A stretch of DNA of 63,617 nucleotides, counting the filler. It is 7 parts of 7 records of this genome, joined end to end, with 100 filler letters (N's around TTAATTAATTAA, not from the genome) between each part and the next. Parts side by side here need not be neighbours in the genome. Positions count along the whole stretch, not along the records: positions 58,299 to 63,617 come from SRR20825019_1625; 6 more parts are not named here. One strand, written 5' to 3'. A program made the position numbers and the translations under genes. Every line of letters begins with the position of its first letter. The first letter of the stretch is position 1. The notes under the pieces are model-generated. The model ran no database searches. It had not been told where the DNA came from and was given only the letters and a program-made list of their open reading frames with translations. This document shows, piece by piece, positions 15,701 to 63,617 of the stretch.

Positions 15701-15800
15701 NNNNNNNNNNNNNNNNNNNNNNNNNNNNNNNNNNNNNNNNNNNNTTAATTAATTAANNNNNNNNNNNNNNNNNNNNNNNNNNNNNNNNNNNNNNNNNNNN
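15701..15800. other. Artificial contig spacer; the same spacer is at 26131-26230, 36706-36805, 44834-44933, 50967-51066 and 58199-58298
   Basis: N-runs flanking TTAATTAATTAA, a linker with stops in all six frames; genes are truncated on either side. Confidence 0.98.
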
Positions 15801-26130: not shown

Positions 26131-26412
26131 NNNNNNNNNNNNNNNNNNNNNNNNNNNNNNNNNNNNNNNNNNNNTTAATTAATTAANNNNNNNNNNNNNN
26201 NNNNNNNNNNNNNNNNNNNNNNNNNNNNNNGCCGGGCCGCCCCACGGCACGGCGATTTGGGTTCTGTGGTGCGCGATAGACAGGTTGGATGTGCTTGGCT
26301 GCCATAAAGTGGCAGTCACGCAGGTTGCATCGCCGCACCACGGCACGGCGATGCGCGGCTTTGTGGTCGATTATGGACGGCAGCTAGGCCCCGCGTGGCC
26401 GAACCTGCCCTC

Positions 26413-36705: not shown

Positions 36706-36806
36706 NNNNNNNNNNNNNNNNNNNNNNNNNNNNNNNNNNNNNNNNNNNNTTAATTAATTAANNNNNNNNNNNNNNNNNNNNNNNNNNNNNNNNNNNNNNN
36801 NNNNNC

Positions 36807-44833: not shown

Positions 44834-44935
44834 NNNNNNNNNNNNNNNNNNNNNNNNNNNNNNNNNNNNNNNNNNNNTTAATTAATTAANNNNNNNNNNN
44901 NNNNNNNNNNNNNNNNNNNNNNNNNNNNNNNNNGT

Positions 44936-50966: not shown

Positions 50967-51066
50967 NNNNNNNNNNNNNNNNNNNNNNNNNNNNNNNNNN
51001 NNNNNNNNNNTTAATTAATTAANNNNNNNNNNNNNNNNNNNNNNNNNNNNNNNNNNNNNNNNNNNN

Positions 51067-56249: not shown

Positions 56250-58052
56250 TCAGGGCGCGGTGGCTTCCAGCTCGTCAATCAGCCGCTCGATCATGGAAAG
56301 GCCGAGCGACCAGAATTGGGGATCTTTGGCATCGAGCCCGAACGGCGCGAGTAGTTCGGAATGATGCTTGCTGCCCCCGGCCTTGAGAAGCGCGAAATAG
56401 CGCTCCGCAAAGCCATCACTGGCCTTCTCATACTGTGCGTAAAGCGAGTTCACAAGGCAGTCGCCAAAGGCATAGGCATAGACATAGAAGGGCGAGTGGA
56501 TGAAATGGGGGATATAGGCCCAGAAGGTTTCGTAGCCTTGATTGGCAATGATGCCCTCGCCTAGGGACTCGGCCTGCACCTCGAGCCAGAGGGCGTTGAT
56601 CTCCTCGGTGCGCAATTCGCCCAAACGGCGGGCGGTGTGCACCTTGCGTTCAAAGGCATAAAAGGCGATCTGCCGCACGACGGTATTGAGCATGTCCTCG
56701 ACCTTGCCCGAGAGCAGGGCGAAGCGCTGCTTGGGATCGGTGGTCTTGTCGAGCAGGGCGCGGAAGGTCAGCATTTCGCCAAAGACCGAGGCGGTTTCGG
56801 CCAGGGTCAGTGGTGTATTGGCAAGGATCGGGCCCTGTGCCGCCGCCAGGCGCTGGTGCACGCCATGGCCCAATTCGTGGGCGAGCGTCATGATATCGCG
56901 GGTGCGCCCGAGATAGTTCAGCATCAGATAGGGGTGGGCACTGGGGACGGTGGGGTGCGCGAAGGCGCCCGAGAGTTTGCCATTGCCGGTGGGCGCGTCG
57001 ATCCAACCCGAATTGAAGAAGGGCTTGGCGACGTCGGCCAGCTCAGGGGAAAACCGACCATAGGCGTCGAGTACGGTGGTGACCGCCGTGTCCCAGTCCC
57101 AGATACGCTCGTCGCTCGTGGGCAGGGGCGCATTGCGGTCCCAGGCATTGAGCTTGTCCTTGCCGAACCACTTGGCTTTCATCTTGTAGTAGCGGTGCGA
57201 AAGACGCGGATAGGCGTCCTGCACGGCAACCTGCAGCGCATCGACCACTTCGCGCTCTACCGAATTGGCCATATGGCGGCTATCGGCAATATCCTGGTAG
57301 CCGCGCCAGCGGTCGGAGATTTCCTTGTCCTTGGCCAGGACATTGGTGATGTGGGTGAACAGCCGCCCATTCGCCTTGAGAGTGGTGGCCAGGGCCTTGA
57401 AGGCGGCCTCGCGCTTGGTCTCGTCCCTGTCCGAGAGCAGATGCAGGGTGGATTCGAGATTGAGCGTTTCGCCATCAACCTCGAATTCGAGGCTCGACAG
57501 CGTTTCGTCAAACAGACGGTTCCAAGCTGAATAGGCAGTGACCGACTTGTCGTGGAACAGCTCCTCGAGCTTGTCGTCGAGCTGATAGGGCTTGGCCTTG
57601 CGCAAATCGGCGAACCAGGTCTTGTAGCGCGCCAGCTCCGCATCCTTATCGAGCGCGGCATCCAGATCGGCATCGGCAATGCGGTTAAGCTCAAGTTCGA
57701 AGAACAAAACGCGCGTCGAGAGGTTGGTCAGCGCTTCATTGGTGTCGCCCATGAATTTGGCGCGGTCGGGGTCGGTCGATTTCTGCGCATATTGCAGGAA
57801 GGAGAACGAGCCAATGCGGCCGGTCAGATCGCCCAGCGTCTCGCTGTCCTTGATCGCCTCGATCAGCCGGCCGGTTTTGGTCAGCTCGGCCAGCTTGCCC
57901 TTGTATTTGGCCTCGAATTCGGTGGCCAGGGCCTTGGCCTGGTCCATTGCCGCCTTGAATTCGGGGCTGTCCTTGCCGGGATAGAGATCGTCGAGATCCC
58001 AGACCGGCAGGTTGCCGAACTGGTTGTGGCCTTTTTGAGCGGCGGCGGACAT
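56250..58052 (-). CDS. M3-family oligoendopeptidase F
   Basis: WDLDDLY, TLAHELGHGVH, LAETASVF, HFIHSPFYVYAY. Confidence 0.93.
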   Translation of the reverse strand: MSAAAQKGHNQFGNLPVWDLDDLYPGKDSPEFKAAMDQAKALATEFEAKYKGKLAELTKTGRLIEAIKDSETLGDLTGRIGSFSFLQYAQKSTDPDRAKFMGDTNEALTNLSTRVLFFELELNRIADADLDAALDKDAELARYKTWFADLRKAKPYQLDDKLEELFHDKSVTAYSAWNRLFDETLSSLEFEVDGETLNLESTLHLLSDRDETKREAAFKALATTLKANGRLFTHITNVLAKDKEISDRWRGYQDIADSRHMANSVEREVVDALQVAVQDAYPRLSHRYYKMKAKWFGKDKLNAWDRNAPLPTSDERIWDWDTAVTTVLDAYGRFSPELADVAKPFFNSGWIDAPTGNGKLSGAFAHPTVPSAHPYLMLNYLGRTRDIMTLAHELGHGVHQRLAAAQGPILANTPLTLAETASVFGEMLTFRALLDKTTDPKQRFALLSGKVEDMLNTVVRQIAFYAFERKVHTARRLGELRTEEINALWLEVQAESLGEGIIANQGYETFWAYIPHFIHSPFYVYAYAFGDCLVNSLYAQYEKASDGFAERYFALLKAGGSKHHSELLAPFGLDAKDPQFWSLGLSMIERLIDELEATAP

Positions 58053-58198: not shown

Positions 58199-58324
58199 NN
58201 NNNNNNNNNNNNNNNNNNNNNNNNNNNNNNNNNNNNNNNNNNTTAATTAATTAANNNNNNNNNNNNNNNNNNNNNNNNNNNNNNNNNNNNNNNNNNNNAT
58301 TTTCCGCGCCACAAAATGAATCGT

Positions 58325-58400
58325 GCTGATGTAGCTCAGCTGGTAGAGCGGCGCATTCGTAATGCGTAGGTCGTAGGTTCAAATCCTATCATCAGCACCA
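58325..58400 (+). tRNA. tRNA-Thr(CGT)
   Basis: Cloverleaf: GCTGATG/CATCAGC acceptor, GCTC/GAGC D-stem, anticodon loop TT-CGT-AA, GGTTCAAATCC T-arm, encoded CCA; 76 nt. Confidence 0.97.
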
Positions 58401-58404
58401 CTAT

Positions 58405-58439
58405 AACCCCGTCGGGCGAACAGCCCTGCGGGGTTTTTT
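58405..58439 (+). terminator. Intrinsic terminator after the tRNA
   Basis: AACCCCG...GGGC-gaaca-GCCC...CGGGGTT followed by a T-run. Confidence 0.8.
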
Positions 58440-58473: not shown

Positions 58474-58498
58474 GTCACAACCTCCGGTGCTCCCCGTC
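58474..58498 (+). promoter_or_regulatory. ECF-type promoter, copy 1: GTCACAA-N14-CGTC
   Basis: About 100 nt upstream of ORF 58598; same spacing as the other three copies. Confidence 0.75.
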
Positions 58499-58597
58499 CT
58501 TTTGACATGTGAACCGTCGCAATCCTTGTGAAATCCGGTTCGGCGCAGGCGTGCACCCTCCGCAGCGTTTCGCAAGTGCAACCAGGGGATTGTCAGC

Positions 58598-60352
58598 ATG
58601 ACCGACAAAGACCAACAGCCCAACAGCACCGAAAATGGCGGAAGCAATCCCGCCGCCACCAACGGCCCCAAAAGCCCGGCCGTCGATAACTGGCCGTGGG
58701 CCCATGTGCTGGGTTTCGACACGGCAAAGGAATGGGGTCTTGACGCCGTCATTCCCCGCCCGTCATCGGCCTCCCCGATCCCCGATCCGTCCAGTGGCGC
58801 GACCGGCGGCAACAATCCGGGGCCGCTCGATGGGCTATCGGGCCATACACCACTGCAAGGCCAGAATCTGATCGAATATGCCATGCAGAAAATTGAACAA
58901 GCCCTTGGCCAGCCGATGCAGGCGGTCCCGCCACTGTCATCTTACAGCTACGACGAATACGGCAACCTGACCACAACGGCGAGCACGACCGTACCGGCCC
59001 CGGCCCCGCAAAACGCGGCACCGGAAACATCATCTACCGGCTCCCCCCCTACCGCTGCCGACACCCCCGACAGCGGAGACGACCGGGACGACGATCTCAC
59101 CGACGAAGAAGTCCCCCCCCGCTTTCAGGATCACGACGACACCGTAACCACGCCAAGCCGCCCGACATCCGGCATGTCCAGCCCCACAGGCCCGCAATCC
59201 TATCGCGTTGACCTGATCCGTGATGACGGCCGTGTGACACGGCTCGAAGGCAGCGTGACGTATGGCGATCTTTATCGCCCGCTTCTGCCCGAGCTATCTG
59301 GCAATGCCCAAAATGCCCAGACGCCGGACTGGTCGATCACACTTGATCAATTGCCCAACCCCGGCCCTACCGGCAGCGACACGGATGCCATTGTCACCGC
59401 ACGGCTTGATGCCGCCGAAACCCCGGCTGATATCCGGCAATGGGCGCTATCGGTAGGGCCACAAGACATCAACACCGCCCGGCTGGCACTTGATATCCCG
59501 GCAACCCTGCCGTCTCTGACACGGGCCAGCATCATCGGTGGATTACCATCTAGCGAATGGCACATGGCCGCGGCAACACTGGCAGCGGGCGGCGTCAGTA
59601 CGGACAACTCCGGCACTTCGATCCCGGACGCTGCCGAACCCGTTGCTCCGGCAAGCCTTGGCATGGATCAGCAACTCGGTACGATTGACAGCACGCAGGA
59701 TCCGTTCATCGCCACCCTGCGCATCACATCGGCCATCACCAGCATCCCGACCTCGATCCCGGTTCAACTGCAATATACAGGTGCTTTGCCCAGCCCGATC
59801 TTGCAGGGTGACGTCCCCCTCACGACCGAAACCAGCCTGTCGCTTCGCATGCAGGTCATCGCCCCCAACGACGGTAAATCGGGCGCAACCCTTGTCGCGC
59901 TGATCCTGCGCGGGGCTGCGTCGGGCTTTTCGGTCACCGCACAACTGCGCGGCGATCACAAAATCTCGACCCCGACCGCGATGCTCGGCTGCATCGATCC
60001 GGGCCAGGATACCGAATGCCGCGCCGAAAGCATGATCGCCAATGCAACATCCAGCCTGCAAACCAGCCTGATCAGCATCACCGATACCCCGGACGATGAC
60101 GGGCTTGCCGCCTATGGGTTTGTGCTGCCCGCACCGTCCGGTAACGACAACACCACCGACGCAACCCAGACCGACAAACCGGACAAAGGCACAAATATCG
60201 CCAAATCAGCCCCGGCGAAGCCAGCATCGGTAAAAGGCAAGGCCGCCATCACTGACAACACCAACAGCCCCCCCGATGCTGACAGCAGTAACGGCGATAC
60301 CGGCACTACCGCCACCAACAGTCCCGGAAAACCCGACAAGGGAGCCTCCTGA
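58598..60352 (+). CDS. Hypothetical 584-aa Pro/Thr/Ser/Asp-rich protein in the reb locus
   Basis: Long ORF, TGATG-coupled to the next gene; disordered ends and a possible beta-rich core; no family recognised. Confidence 0.7.
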   Translation: MTDKDQQPNSTENGGSNPAATNGPKSPAVDNWPWAHVLGFDTAKEWGLDAVIPRPSSASPIPDPSSGATGGNNPGPLDGLSGHTPLQGQNLIEYAMQKIEQALGQPMQAVPPLSSYSYDEYGNLTTTASTTVPAPAPQNAAPETSSTGSPPTAADTPDSGDDRDDDLTDEEVPPRFQDHDDTVTTPSRPTSGMSSPTGPQSYRVDLIRDDGRVTRLEGSVTYGDLYRPLLPELSGNAQNAQTPDWSITLDQLPNPGPTGSDTDAIVTARLDAAETPADIRQWALSVGPQDINTARLALDIPATLPSLTRASIIGGLPSSEWHMAAATLAAGGVSTDNSGTSIPDAAEPVAPASLGMDQQLGTIDSTQDPFIATLRITSAITSIPTSIPVQLQYTGALPSPILQGDVPLTTETSLSLRMQVIAPNDGKSGATLVALILRGAASGFSVTAQLRGDHKISTPTAMLGCIDPGQDTECRAESMIANATSSLQTSLISITDTPDDDGLAAYGFVLPAPSGNDNTTDATQTDKPDKGTNIAKSAPAKPASVKGKAAITDNTNSPPDADSSNGDTGTTATNSPGKPDKGAS

Positions 60353-60993
60353 TGACAAGCGGCCCGAACTTTCCCGGCGTCGAAACGGCAAGCAGTAAAA
60401 AGGATGCGGTAAAAAAGGCCTTCAATCAGGAATATCAGGCCACCATGAAAGCCATGGCGAATGCCGCGGACCGTGCGCGTGCGCAAGTTTTGAACCAGAA
60501 ACTCGCCGCGGGAAGCCACGCACAATCAAGCCAAAGCACAAAAGCCGTCGCAACCGCCCCGAATGCACCGGGCACCAACAACGCGCCATCAACCCCGATC
60601 GAGCCGGGCGCAATGGTCATGATCGAAATCGCCAATGAATTGCGCCGCATCATCGTCGCGGAAATTGACATGCGCATGAACCATCTGGCGGGACAGGTCG
60701 AACAGGCAATCGCACAGTCAATTCCGCCTGTGGCATCAAATGCACCTTCCGATGCAAAACCTGCGGCCGCCCAGCCTGCCGGAAGCGAAACCGGCACTGC
60801 CCCACAAACGTCTCAACCAAATATTCCCGCCACGCCGCAAAGCAACGCGCAAAACCCAAGCGCCGCAGCGCCTCCCCAACCTACACCTTCTCCGGAAACC
60901 GCCCCTTCGGAAAACACCCGGCTCACAGCACCACAAACTGCCAATGCCGGTTCCGAAAATCCACCAAACGCCGCCCCACCGGCGGATGGATGA
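60352..60993 (+). CDS. Hypothetical 213-aa protein with two helical segments and a Pro/Ala/Gln-rich tail
   Basis: GGAG RBS, TGATG overlap; amphipathic helix MIEIANELRRIIVAEIDMRMNHLAGQVEQAI. Confidence 0.7.
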   Translation: MTSGPNFPGVETASSKKDAVKKAFNQEYQATMKAMANAADRARAQVLNQKLAAGSHAQSSQSTKAVATAPNAPGTNNAPSTPIEPGAMVMIEIANELRRIIVAEIDMRMNHLAGQVEQAIAQSIPPVASNAPSDAKPAAAQPAGSETGTAPQTSQPNIPATPQSNAQNPSAAAPPQPTPSPETAPSENTRLTAPQTANAGSENPPNAAPPADG

Positions 60994-61166
60994 TTCGGCT
61001 TTTGCCAAAGGTTGCAAGTCCGACCTGCAACTCGATCCCGCAGGACGTGGGTCACGACCTAGGCGAGAAATCTGAAAAACATCTTTTAAAACAGAAGGTT
61101 AAAGGGTGTCATTCGCGACTTTCCCAGCCAAGAATTGCGCAACCTTAAATAGTATTTTTCTTTTTC

Positions 61167-61191
61167 TTCACAATTAAGACTGCGCGCCGTC
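61167..61191 (+). promoter_or_regulatory. ECF-type promoter, copy 2 (upstream of the sigma gene): TTCACAA-N14-CGTC
   Basis: About 60 nt upstream of the sigma GTG start. Confidence 0.72.
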
Positions 61192-61252
61192 ATAATAGTC
61201 GCGAGAGACCTAAACAGCCTTTGGTTGTAATCTTTCTGAGGAGGGGTCCGAA

Positions 61253-62467
61253 GTGCAGTACGAAAAGAATACCGAACAGGGACAGACAGAACTATCGGAA
61301 AACGAAATCACGTTTGCCCAATCCCTAGACGATGCCTTGGAAAAGGCATTGGGGACAGGCGACAATGTCACATCAATCTGGTCGCACCTCAAAGATGAAC
61401 AGCGCGCCAGACTGGCTGCGGACTACCTTGCTGCATTGAATACCGATTCTCGTAAAAGTAGTAATTTTGAAAGCAATTCGTCAGCCTCACCCACCACGCC
61501 AGAGGCACCGCCAGAAGCACAGCAAGGAACAGCAGCAGCCTACACAGCCCCCCCGCAAACCGGGCCAGAAACCTCTGCCGTGCCGCGTGGTTATCCGGCG
61601 AATTTCAATCCATTGGCCGGATTTCCGGGACTGGAACCATCGTCAAACGGCCCAAGCCCAACCGATATCATCGCCGGTAGTCTTGGCAATCCTGGCAGTC
61701 TTGCCGGGCTGGCCGGGTTGCAGGGAATGTCGGGAATGCCCGGCTCGCGAGGATCGGGCAACACCGGCAATCAGATCGACCAGATGCAGCGATCCCTGCA
61801 GGATGCGATGTCGCTGCTGGGCAATCTCGGTTTCGAACAACCGGCTCCTTGCCAGCCCCTTGGCACCCCGCCAACACACGCCCCCCATCCACGAGCATGG
61901 CAATCCGATCCCCTCGATGATTCCGACCTTCCCGGTATGGAACCGGCCGCGCCAAATTTCTGGCCGCTCTGGATGGATCAACAGGACAGCCTTCTCAAGC
62001 AATGCCTGAAACTGATGTCTGGCAATATGGATGACGCGCAGGATGCACTGTCCGAAGCCATGCTAAAGGCATCGGTAAAGTTCGAGGATTCAATGGACGA
62101 AATCCGTAATCACCGCGCCTGGCTGTCACGGATCGTGCACAATGCCTGCATTGATCTGCATCGGCAAAACCGCCGAAAGGCGGAATACAAGGAAGAAAAC
62201 CACGGCACCGCGGATGCCGCCCTGCCGCCGATTTCCGGTCGCAACGAACCCAGCCCTGAGGAATCCTTCCTTGCGACCGAAATGTTCGACCATCTTGAAC
62301 GCGCCTTACGCGCCCTTCCTGAAAAACTGCGCAAACCGCTTCTGATGCGATGTGTCGAAGACCGCAGCTACGATGATATCGCGGTCAATCTCGGACTAAG
62401 CAATTGTGCCGTGCGTAAACGCGTTCAGCTTGCCCGCGACCATCTGCGTGGCGCAGGCATCCAGTAA
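61253..62467 (+). CDS. ECF sigma-70 factor with a long N-terminal extension, reb-associated
   Basis: Region 2 GNMDDAQDALSEAMLKA...RAWLSRIVHNACIDLHR; region 4 LPEKLR...SYDDIA...AVRKRVQLAR; GAGGAGG RBS before GTG. Confidence 0.88.
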   Translation: MQYEKNTEQGQTELSENEITFAQSLDDALEKALGTGDNVTSIWSHLKDEQRARLAADYLAALNTDSRKSSNFESNSSASPTTPEAPPEAQQGTAAAYTAPPQTGPETSAVPRGYPANFNPLAGFPGLEPSSNGPSPTDIIAGSLGNPGSLAGLAGLQGMSGMPGSRGSGNTGNQIDQMQRSLQDAMSLLGNLGFEQPAPCQPLGTPPTHAPHPRAWQSDPLDDSDLPGMEPAAPNFWPLWMDQQDSLLKQCLKLMSGNMDDAQDALSEAMLKASVKFEDSMDEIRNHRAWLSRIVHNACIDLHRQNRRKAEYKEENHGTADAALPPISGRNEPSPEESFLATEMFDHLERALRALPEKLRKPLLMRCVEDRSYDDIAVNLGLSNCAVRKRVQLARDHLRGAGIQ

Positions 62468-62600
62468 CCGCACGTGAAACCTGTTTAACGGGCAGAATGA
62501 CAAATGCCATTCTGCCCGTTTCAACGCCGGGCTTGGAAAAGATCCGGCCCGCAAAAGACTTACAGAAATCCCCTTGCTGGCAAAAAAAATCATCCGTCCT

Positions 62601-62625
62601 GTCACAACCCCGAATTGCCAGCGTC
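62601..62625 (+). promoter_or_regulatory. ECF-type promoter, copy 3: GTCACAA-N14-CGTC
   Basis: About 72 nt upstream of the first rebB ATG. Confidence 0.78.
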
Positions 62626-62697
62626 GATAGGGTGAATTCGGGACGGAGAAACCCCGTCAGGATTTCCACCGCAAGCAGCATACGAAGGAGTTTTGAA

Positions 62698-63021
62698 ATG
62701 GCGATTCCGACCCCGGTAAACGGTCAAATCACCGATGCCGTCACCCAGGCAAACGTCAAGGTGCTCGGTGATGCCCCGGCCATGGCTATGGGCTCGATCT
62801 TCCAGTCACTGGCCCATTCCACGGGCATTCTCTATGAAAATGCCGTCAGCGCCCAGCAGCAGCTTGGCATTTCTTCTCAGGCGGCAACCAACCAGGGTGT
62901 CATCCAGATCTATTCGATCGACACCATGGCCGATGCCGTCGCGACCTCGAAAATTGCCCAGAGCGACGTCCCCGACAACATGCTTTCGCTTCTGACCACC
63001 CTTCAGGCCGTCAAAAGCTAA
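62698..63021 (+). CDS. rebB: RebB-family R-body protein
   Basis: VNGQITDAVTQANVKVLGDAPAMAMG..FQ...AHSTGILYENAVSAQQQ...QAATNQGV; AAGGAG RBS fixes the start at MAIPTP. Confidence 0.93.
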   Translation: MAIPTPVNGQITDAVTQANVKVLGDAPAMAMGSIFQSLAHSTGILYENAVSAQQQLGISSQAATNQGVIQIYSIDTMADAVATSKIAQSDVPDNMLSLLTTLQAVKS

Positions 63022-63045
63022 GCCCCGTCCTCCAAGACCTCCCCG

Positions 63046-63079
63046 ATTGGGCGGCCCGTTTTCCGACCGGCCGCCCAAT
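63046..63079 (+). terminator. Hairpin between the two rebB genes
   Basis: ATTGGGCGGCC...GGCCGCCCAAT inverted repeat; the U-tract is weak. Confidence 0.55.
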
Positions 63080-63122
63080 ATCGTTTCCCGGCAATTCCGC
63101 CCGCAGTTTTTGACGGTTTGAC

Positions 63123-63147
63123 GTCACAAAGGCATATCCTCACCGTC
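63123..63147 (+). promoter_or_regulatory. ECF-type promoter, copy 4: GTCACAA-N14-CGTC
   Basis: About 76 nt upstream of the second rebB ATG. Confidence 0.78.
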
Positions 63148-63223
63148 AAATGACTGATCGCCGCGCACCACGCGGAACGGGCCGGTTTCCGGCATATTTA
63201 TCCAGGCAACCAGGAGACAGATT

Positions 63224-63559
63224 ATGGCTGATAATACCCCGGTCAATGGCATGATTACCGATGCAGTGACCCAGGCCAATGTCAAAGTACTGGGCGATGC
63301 ACCGGCCATGGCCATGGGCTCGCTGTTTCAGTCGCTGGCACATTCCCACGGCATTCTTTACGAAAACGCCGTCAGCAACCAGCAGCAGGTCGGCATCTCG
63401 TCGCAGGCTGCAACCAACCAGGGCGTCATTCAGGTCTATTCCGTCGACACCATGGCAGGTGCCGTGGCAACGCAGAAAATCGCAACCAGCGACGTTCCGG
63501 ACAACATGCTTGCATTGCTGTCCGCCCTGAAGGCAACCACCGGCACCGCAGTGTCGTAA
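63224..63559 (+). CDS. rebB: RebB-family R-body protein (paralogue)
   Basis: VNGMITDAVTQANVKVLGDAPAMAMG...; closely similar to the upstream copy; AGGAG RBS. Confidence 0.93.
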   Translation: MADNTPVNGMITDAVTQANVKVLGDAPAMAMGSLFQSLAHSHGILYENAVSNQQQVGISSQAATNQGVIQVYSVDTMAGAVATQKIATSDVPDNMLALLSALKATTGTAVS

Positions 63560-63587
63560 ACCTTCATTGGTTTCGCCGCCCGAACCG

Positions 63588-63617
63588 GCCCGGCATGCAA
63601 AAGCTTGCCGGGCTTTT
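63588..63617 (+). terminator. Intrinsic terminator after the second rebB
   Basis: GCCCGGCAtGC-aaaa-GCtTGCCGGGC-TTTT at the window end. Confidence 0.7.

Follow-up and report, generated by a model that had tools for sequence, protein, structure and literature searches.

A Repeated Promoter-Like Element in a Thalassospira reb Locus

Which regulator switches on R-body genes that lie beside a gene for a sigma factor? R-bodies are pH-triggered, spring-like protein pistons and, to our knowledge, the control of their production is known only for Pseudomonas aeruginosa PA14 and for Azorhizobium. The question is raised here by a reb locus at the end of a 63,617-nt stretch of DNA (hereafter the window), which consists of seven contigs joined end to end by N44-TTAATTAATTAA-N44 spacers. 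The reb genes lie on the last contig only (58299–63617), where every feature is on the + strand: two orphan genes (orfA and orfB), a gene for a sigma factor of the extracytoplasmic function (ECF) type, and two genes of the RebB family (rebB1 and rebB2), with the element KTCACAA-N14-CGTC recurring ahead of them. Sequence comparison indicates that this 5.3-kb piece is probably the left part of a Thalassospira reb cluster, the units of which are headed by promoters for the cluster's own ECF sigma factor. The predicted promoters combine a −35 element (T)GTCACA with a −10 element CGTC, and the distance from TCACA to CGTC is 15 nt in Thalassospira and 16 nt in some other bacteria.

When both strands of the window were scanned, KTCACAA-N14-CGTC matched exactly four times, at 58474, 61167, 62601, and 63123. 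All four matches are on the + strand, within the last 5.3 kb, and co-directional with the genes. The chance expectation from dinucleotide shuffles is 0.09, and none of 100 shuffles reached four matches. The looser pattern TCACA-N15/16-CGTC recovers the same four sites and adds none (0.84 expected). The copy at 61167 begins with TTCACAA and the other three with GTCACAA; the full TGTCACA is present at two of the four. Counted from the end of CGTC to the start codon, the element stands 99 nt before the ATG of orfA (P_orfA, 58474–58498; ATG at 58598), 61 nt before the GTG of the sigma gene (P_sigma, 61167–61191; GTG at 61253), 72 nt before the ATG of rebB1 (P_rebB1, 62601–62625; ATG at 62698), and 76 nt before the ATG of rebB2 (P_rebB2, 63123–63147; ATG at 63224). 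An earlier note on this DNA had listed four sites with a constant 14-nt spacer some 60–100 nt upstream of start codons, and the pattern scan gives exactly those positions and letters. It had also placed the sequence in a marine alphaproteobacterium, which agrees with the 100% identity of the sigma factor to a Thalassospira sp. protein. When aligned, the four promoter regions have only TCACAA, CGTC, and scattered single bases in common, and they are therefore not copies of one duplicated segment.

The contig stops 58 nt past rebB2, inside the reb cluster, so that the "all four transcription units" of the earlier note covers only the units within a truncated contig. We found the complete cluster in a sister strain (locus L001), with a sigma factor 96% identical and a RebB1 100% identical to those of the window. 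This cluster comprises seven Reb-family genes and six copies of the motif. It continues past the point where the window ends (L001:9425–12163), and the two copies located beyond rebB2 (L001:10350 and 11456) each head an apparent operon, with three and two reb genes, respectively. As the contig breaks inside the cluster and L001 has five further reb genes, the full locus would consist of six promoters and seven reb genes.

Conservation of the Element in Related Loci

To follow the element outside the window, 32 sigma homologues were aligned and the alignment was used for a profile search of genome contigs. The best 80 of 397 confirmed sigma relatives yielded 79 loci, which together with the window piece form the 80 sequences considered below. 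They belong to Thalassospira (31 loci), Magnetovibrio, Nisaea, Kordiimonas, Tistlia, Rhizomicrobium, Caulobacter, Paracoccaceae, two gammaproteobacterial metagenome-assembled genomes (MAGs), Myxococcota, one cyanobacterium, and one acidobacterium. According to tblastn searches with the window proteins, Reb-family genes are present within 8 kb of the sigma gene in 63 of the 80 sequences.

Over the 79 loci, TCACA-Nx-CGTC matched 8, 5, 4, 288, 102, 9, 5, and 5 times for x = 12 to 19, and the control cores TCACT, TCAGA, and ACACT gave 0–11 matches at every spacing. The 288 matches at N15 compare with 6–18 in five first-order Markov simulations (1,198,326 nt). The preferred spacing depends on the clade, being N16 in Nisaea and Myxococcota and N15 in Thalassospira (165 matches vs 0–8 at other spacings). 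The earlier note had proposed a motif search over homologous clusters as a check, and an unbiased enumeration of dyads (a 5-mer, a spacer of 12–19 nt, and a 4-mer) in the 160-nt regions upstream of reb genes ranked TCACA-15-CGTC first in the non-Thalassospira set (71 of 230 regions) and again in the Thalassospira set (86 of 159), with an antisense control of 0 in each case.

The position of the element relative to genes is equally constrained. Among the 394 N15/16 matches in the 80 sequences, 388 are followed by an open reading frame (ORF) of at least 45 aa starting 10–260 nt downstream. These ORFs include 222 Reb-family members, distributed over 62 of the 63 reb-bearing sequences, 66 instances of the sigma ORF in 64 of the 80 sequences, and 25 instances of orfA. 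The motif precedes orfA in each of the 25 sequences that hold this gene (24 Thalassospira loci and the window). Its density is 0.80 per kb inside the cluster spans and 0.08 per kb outside, and the copies beside minus-strand reb genes are, with few exceptions, on the minus strand as well. TCACAA and CGTC form invariant blocks in an alignment of 16 Thalassospira promoters, in which the spacer and the upstream DNA vary. Likewise, GTCACAA and CGTC are invariant and the spacer variable in 16 aligned rebB1 upstream regions of this genus. Parts of the downstream leaders are conserved too in these 16-sequence alignments, and a TGA is weakly conserved 8–10 nt downstream of the motif.

The Element Follows the Sigma Gene

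Sequences in which either the reb genes or the sigma gene are missing separate the two possible associations of the motif, and in this comparison it is the sigma gene, and not the reb genes, that the motif accompanies. Of the 17 sequences that lack reb genes, 11 keep the motif before the sigma gene. The clearest case is Thalassospira mesophila (L026:7373–9131), a locus with tRNA-Thr, two copies of the motif, and an intact sigma gene, and without orfA, orfB, or reb genes within 8 kb. It is syntenic with the reb-bearing loci: its left flank has their tRNA, and its right flank has their cyclase, kinase, and regulator genes. The motif pattern of L026 is also seen in L025, L027, L028, and L035, likewise without reb genes. 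We considered that the sigma of these five reb-less loci might be a paralogue and rejected this, as L026 is syntenic and has lost its reb genes. The sigma of reb-less Thalassospira loci may be an orphan or may control reb genes located elsewhere in the genome.

The converse situation was found among eight plasmid-borne reb loci gathered by tblastn with RebB1. In six of them (Azospirillum, Caedibacter, Bealeia, Ralstonia, Vibrio, and Eleftheria) no sigma gene was detected by annotation or by tblastn with the sigma of the window, two of the records being unannotated. Five of these six loci contain no copy of the motif, searched as TCAC[AG]; the Eleftheria locus has three copies, none of them before a reb gene. 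The Ruegeria and Burkholderia plasmid loci encode distant sigma factors (18% and 29% identical, respectively) beside a gene of the Crp/Fnr family. In these two loci, TCACGA-N14-CGTC lies before reb genes (L080:3924, 6575, and 7565; L085:7846) and a palindrome, TGTTACGCGKGTAACA, precedes the sigma gene (L080:3300–3357; L085:10480–10544). This arrangement suggests a cascade from the Crp/Fnr-type regulator to the sigma factor and then to the reb genes through a sister promoter, and from the gene order it may correspond to the architecture of PA14. The −35 element thus changes with the sigma family, as expected if the local sigma is the reader.

The Sigma Factor and Its Published Relatives

The sigma gene (61253–62467) encodes a protein of 404 aa. 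Pfam identifies Sigma70_r2 at residues 247–308 and Sigma70_r4_2 at 348–398, with no r3, and the ECF superfamily model TIGR02937 scores 68.5 bits for a cutoff of 42.9. With sigma2 and sigma4 domains only and an ECF model above its cutoff, the protein is an ECF (group 4) sigma factor; NCBIfam gives no equivalog. A search of PDB sequences returned 15 matches, led by SigW, SigH, and SigE, with no chain named SigJ among them, and with the SigJ model the protein reaches 42 of the 271 bits required. The sigma2–sigma4 part covers residues ~236–404, the protein ending five residues after the sigma4 match, and is preceded by an N-terminal extension (~1–235). In the AlphaFold2 (AF2) model, the sigma domains have a pLDDT above 90 and the extension is mostly disordered, with helices at 16–68, 136–143, and 174–189. 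This extension is conserved among Thalassospira homologues, as are the GTG start and the Shine–Dalgarno sequence of the gene. Pfam and NCBIfam detected no anti-sigma domain in orfA or orfB, and the window holds no second sigma gene. By analogy with other ECF extensions, the N-terminal extension is the most likely point of control of this sigma.

Within the extension, a PSPxDIIAGSL motif at residues ~130–145 (window ~61640–61687; alignment columns ~255–275) recurs in distant homologues. It is kept there in shorter extensions and is sometimes present twice (LSPAAVIARSL...SPTDIIARS). This motif could be a degron or a partner-binding site.

Among published groups, the sigma fits the description of ECF237 subgroup s4 (Casas-Pastor et al. 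2021, PMC7826278), matched by description only. In the portions of this source consulted, ECF237 sigmas share their neighborhood with several RebB ("killing trait") proteins, no anti-sigma factor gene is present, and s4 members have an N-terminal extension of ~220 aa and a glutamine amidotransferase at position −3. Correspondingly, several RebB genes lie by the sigma gene (two in the window and seven in L001), no anti-sigma gene was seen, the extension measures ~235 aa, and a GATase_4 gene is found three protein genes upstream of the sigma gene in L001 (4070–4861), a position that the window contig ends short of. A cyanobacterial relative also exists (L070). The difference concerns the promoter. 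The same entry describes the group as having no conserved promoter and as not autoregulated, whereas we find the motif before the sigma ORF in 64 of the 80 sequences; this is a descriptive and not a defining property of the group. Our comparison contradicts the entry on this point and would correct it: the promoter appears conserved and the gene is predicted to be autoregulated.

The consensus itself had already been described, contrary to the earlier note, which knew of no such description. TGTCACA-n16±1-CGTC is the promoter signature of ECF41 sigmas, established with mapped transcription starts and reporter tests (Wecke et al. 2012, PMC3426412) and repeated in the supplement of Casas-Pastor et al. 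(PMC7826278). The −35, the −10, and the range of spacing all match the (T)GTCACA-N15-CGTC of the four window sites. According to the sections of these sources consulted, ECF41 sigmas are also autoregulated, lack a separate anti-sigma, and are controlled through their own extension, features that we predict from sequence for the sigma studied here. The two are nevertheless distinct. The ECF41 extension is C-terminal, SnoaL-like, and of ~100 aa, whereas that of the reb-linked sigma is N-terminal and Pfam finds no SnoaL domain in the protein. ECF41 sigmas have a neighboring COE gene (carboxymuconolactone decarboxylase, oxidoreductase, or epimerase) as their sole target, and no such gene is present in the window piece or within ±8 kb in L001, whereas the targets here would be reb genes, with multiple promoters per locus. 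The spacing is also mostly one nt shorter (288 matches for TGTCACA-N15-CGTC vs 102 for N16). The sigma described here is therefore not an ECF41 member. What is new is the assignment of this promoter to a reb-linked sigma clade. We found no prior description of it for reb-linked sigmas, within an incomplete coverage of the literature. This assignment provides a concrete promoter prediction for a widespread clade, and it corrects the published statement that the clade lacks a conserved promoter and autoregulation. It also means that a −35 thought to be ECF41-specific is used by another ECF lineage, with possible cross-talk between both.

Alternative Readers of the Element

As the ECF41 consensus is identical, the main reader of the promoters might be an ECF41-type sigma, SigJ-like and with a SnoaL-like domain at its C-terminus, whose gene lies elsewhere in the genome, the local sigma being otherwise employed or sharing the sites. 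The full TGTCACA found at two of the four window sites would agree with this, as would the statement of its authors that this −35 is "specific for group ECF41" (PMC3426412, sections consulted). We consider it quite improbable. Of the 80 sequences, 64 have the motif ahead of the local sigma gene, the motif is retained when the reb genes are absent, it is missing from five of the six plasmid reb loci without a detected sigma, and its −35 becomes TCACGA where the local sigma belongs to a different family. Moreover, no second sigma gene is present in the window, the local sigma is not itself an ECF41, and in the same sections ECF41 sigmas are said to control essentially one COE operon. There would also be no positive feedback if the housekeeping sigma drove the sigma gene and only the reb and orfA promoters were ECF-dependent. 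Indeed, a sigma-70-like sequence, TTCACA-N18-CATAAT, overlaps P_sigma (61167–61196) and matches 10 of the 12 sigma-70 consensus positions. A T stands before TCACA in 50 of 65 sigma promoters, compared with 59 of the 220 promoters of reb genes. In Thalassospira, 25 of 32 sigma promoters have CATAAT after CGT, a hexamer that is not among the six commonest at the matching position of reb promoters. An 18-nt spacer is suboptimal for sigma-70. In addition, 64 of 80 sequences have CGTC at the exact N15/16 spacing ahead of the sigma gene, and these include 33 non-Thalassospira sites where CATAAT is not conserved. The ECF237 entry, which in its consulted portion states that the group is not autoregulated (PMC7826278), speaks for the housekeeping sigma; conversely, all the alternative sigmas of PA14 studied by Schulz et al., including FecI2, showed auto-regulation (PMC4362757). 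On balance, exclusive control of the sigma gene by the housekeeping sigma seems improbable. The two elements could instead act together: tentatively, TTCACA-N18-CATAAT might in Thalassospira provide enough basal sigma to set off the loop.

TCACA is also a half-site for CRP, and the element could then be an operator for a CRP/FNR-like DNA-binding regulator and not a promoter. Although other reb clusters do have a Crp/Fnr-family gene beside their sigma gene, those loci possess a separate palindrome before it (TGTTACGCGKGTAACA), and neither the window piece nor L001 contains a Crp/Fnr gene. The element is asymmetric, strictly co-directional with the downstream gene, fixed in its spacing, and ends in CGTC, a common ECF −10; no TGTGA partner occurs 6 nt upstream at any of the four window sites. 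An operator is thus a most improbable explanation. There is still less to commend chance, or the copying of reb genes together with their upstream DNA by segmental duplication, to which we assign a negligible likelihood. The rebB1 and rebB2 genes are indeed paralogues with 85% identity, but the four promoter regions have only TCACAA and CGTC in common, the motif also precedes the non-paralogous sigma and orfA genes, and it is conserved in distant genera where the intergenic DNA cannot be aligned. As for chance, none of the 100 shuffles reached four matches.

A Predicted Self-Activating Circuit

We infer that the local sigma reads the motif. RNA polymerase carrying it would start transcription a few nucleotides after CGTC at four places in the window, ahead of orfA-orfB, the sigma gene, rebB1, and rebB2; in the full cluster of the sister strain, the two further promoters would serve five more reb genes. 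Hairpins located after the sigma gene, rebB1, and rebB2 would separate the units, and the N-terminal extension may hold back or release the activity of the sigma. As the element also stands before the sigma gene itself, the circuit would form a positive feedback loop. By analogy with PA14, the outcome would be all-or-none production of R-bodies in a subpopulation, and bistable R-body production is on this ground plausible. Such a self-activating layout, if true, would account for R-bodies being made in only some cells.

The earlier note had proposed that the sigma drives itself and its neighbors. This agrees with the presence of the motif before the sigma gene, the reb genes, and orfA-orfB, at a position, strand, and spacing conserved across many genera, and this interpretation of the wiring is strongly supported by the comparative evidence. 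Its further claim that each reb gene is driven separately holds for rebB1 and rebB2 only, the other five reb genes of L001 lying behind two promoters in apparent operons.

Several observations weigh against the proposed circuit. The evidence for the wiring comes wholly from the comparison of sequences. Sixteen of the 80 sequences have no exact motif before the sigma ORF, and the N15 motif occurs within 250 nt of just 161 of 399 Reb-family tblastn segments, so that many reb genes must be internal to operons or use variants of the motif. The Thalassospira counts are not independent events because these loci are close relatives; the counts from other genera are the stronger evidence. Since ECF41 sigmas use an identical consensus, a sigma encoded elsewhere could read or share the promoters. 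The ECF237 entry, as far as consulted, denies both a conserved promoter and autoregulation (PMC7826278). Finally, positive autoregulation does not by itself yield bistability, which needs non-linearity. In the two gammaproteobacterial MAG loci (L060 and L069), a different element, TTGAACCGTGGAG...GGTTATC, precedes most reb genes, which also counts against the proposed circuit; these loci hold a homologous sigma (41–43% identical) despite this difference in the upstream element.

A broader reading, which we regard as rather doubtful, is that the reb-dedicated ECF clade of Alpha-, Gamma-, and Deltaproteobacteria acts as a master switch for R-bodies that operates free of anti-sigma factors, combining a hybrid promoter, a gating extension, self-activation, and a promoter tag. 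We propose for its parts that the hybrid sigma-70/ECF promoter would give basal sigma, that the disordered extension of the structural model, with its conserved PSPxDIIAG motif, would gate activity, and that self-activation would commit a minority of cells. If this were true, the 24-bp promoter would be a portable tag on every gene co-expressed with R-bodies, including lineage-specific orphans (orfA, orfB, and proteins of 987 to 1380 aa), which would be possible R-body cargo or assembly factors.

A further regulator may act on the sigma gene. A conserved block, ACAAC...T.GTA (61137–61154, + strand), lies ~13–30 nt ahead of the P_sigma −35. Its columns are invariant in 16 aligned Thalassospira sigma-upstream regions, and no invariant block upstream of the −35 is seen in the rebB1 and rebB2 alignments. 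In several species this block is partly palindromic (TACA-N9-TGTA), and it may be an operator, here a candidate only, for an additional regulator.

Comparison with Other reb Systems

ECF-sigma-dependent, stochastic expression of reb genes is already known in P. aeruginosa PA14 (PMC8322103, PMC4362757). Overexpression of fecI2 in this strain raises the expression of rebB1 (log2 11.8), rebB2 (log2 13.1), and PA14_27680, the three genes being up by log2 10–13, and chromatin immunoprecipitation (ChIP) enriches the fecI2 region (PMC4362757 and its supplement). In the sections consulted of another study, the rebP1 promoter depends on FecI2 and RcgA and is active in 0.26% of cells (PMC8322103). The FecI2 motif is described only as AT-rich (PMC4362757 supplement). 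Like the PA14 cluster, the Thalassospira cluster includes a sigma gene and non-Reb genes; the dependence of reb genes on the sigma and their expression in a small subpopulation, as in PA14, would by analogy have their counterpart here. The two systems differ in that the Thalassospira cluster has no gene for a partner transcription factor, the sigma gene of the window being flanked by orfB and rebB1. The closest regulator gene of L001, of DeoR type, is on the far side of the tRNA and glutamine amidotransferase genes. In addition, FecI2 measures ~197 aa as deduced from its coordinates, and the sigma studied here carries a long N-terminal extension.

The reb operon of Azorhizobium caulinodans (PraR and RebR; cited in PMC13430693 and PMC8322103, sections consulted) is likewise kept tightly off by dedicated regulation. 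It differs in relying on transcription factors of the repressor and activator types, with no dedicated sigma described there. In the plasmid locus of Azospirillum type that we examined, neither a sigma gene nor the motif was found. A 2026 survey of reb genes places Thalassospira among the genera where they are prevalent and deliberately ignored the co-localised sigma genes (PMC13430693).

Orphan and Accessory Proteins behind the Element

The first unit of the window encodes two orphan proteins, OrfA (584 aa, 58598–60352) and OrfB (213 aa, 60352–60993), the start of orfB overlapping the stop of orfA by 1 nt. No match to OrfA was found in Pfam, NCBIfam, PDB sequences, or the ESM Atlas. Two beta-rich domains are predicted (~200–312 and ~353–494) between disordered low-complexity stretches. 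The AF2 model, built from 19 sequences, has a mean pLDDT of 58.3 with a core at 80–90, and Foldseek returned no PDB match at E ≤ 0.001 (TM below 0.15). OrfB, which has no match in Pfam, NCBIfam, or PDB sequences, shows two conserved, putatively helical segments (~12–50 and ~88–120) and a disordered tail. Hidden Markov models (HMMs) of both proteins match 25 of 87 fetched loci, all of Thalassospira type.

Outside Thalassospira, different family-less proteins are encoded behind the motif, some of them with 987–1380 aa (L042:9783–13913, L045:2058–6197, L058:1633–4752, and L061:13417–16377), in some cases from divergent promoter pairs. Ten motif-preceded accessory proteins of other genera have no Pfam match above the curated cutoff, and two large ones have no match among PDB sequences. 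These family-less proteins are candidate accessory or cargo proteins of R-bodies. According to the part of a 2026 preprint consulted, the R-bodies of PA14 deliver a toxin encoded in the reb cluster (PMC13733733). The motif could thus serve as a handle for listing genes co-regulated with R-bodies, and hence candidate cargo or assembly proteins, in non-model bacteria.

Layout of the Locus

The spacers between contigs are located at 15701–15800, 26131–26230, 36706–36805, 44834–44933, 50967–51066, and 58199–58298. As the contigs were joined, genes to the left of 58199, such as the 600-aa ORF at 56250–58052, are not neighbors of the reb locus. The two reb genes of the window encode RebB1 (107 aa, 62698–63021; PF11747, E = 1.4e-28) and RebB2 (111 aa, 63224–63559; PF11747, E = 1.1e-27), with scores of 99.2 and 96.3 bits that exceed the PF11747 cutoff of 24.

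Hairpins follow each rebB gene, as the earlier note had stated: at 63046–63079 after rebB1 (z = −3.86; 0 of 200 shuffles as stable) and at 63587–63614 after rebB2, with a U tail at the contig end (z = −2.69). A third, terminator-like with its 12-bp stem but without a long U run, follows the sigma gene (62488–62519; z = −3.07; 1 of 200 shuffles as stable), and that after orfB is weak (z = −1.46). A U run (UUUU) follows the rebB2 hairpin only, and a consensus terminator scan listed neither the sigma nor the rebB1 hairpin.

The leaders were compared with Rfam and matched no RNA family, the tRNA being the sole Rfam match. The rebB1 leader contains a small conserved hairpin, GACGG...CCGTC (62643–62659). 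Two small hairpins are present in the rebB2 leader (63161–63193, + strand), CCGCG...CGCGG followed by GCCGG-TTT-CCGGC. RNAalifold on 14 sequences recovers the first stem in 14 of 14, with just one covarying pair (G-C to A-U), which is weak support for it.

The left boundary of the locus is a tRNA-Thr(CGT) gene (58325–58400, + strand), detected by ARAGORN and by Rfam (74.9 bits) and followed by a short hairpin with a T-run (58422–58435), found by a terminator-like scan. Genomic islands often insert at tRNA genes. To the left of the cluster in L001 lie genes for a class-II glutamine amidotransferase, the DeoR regulator, and an ABC transporter. A tRNA-Thr gene is also present ahead of the cluster in four scanned Thalassospira loci (L001, L006, L014, and L026). 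The Thalassospira reb cluster abuts a tRNA gene, and that of PA14 likewise has tRNA genes beside it (PMC4362757 supplement).

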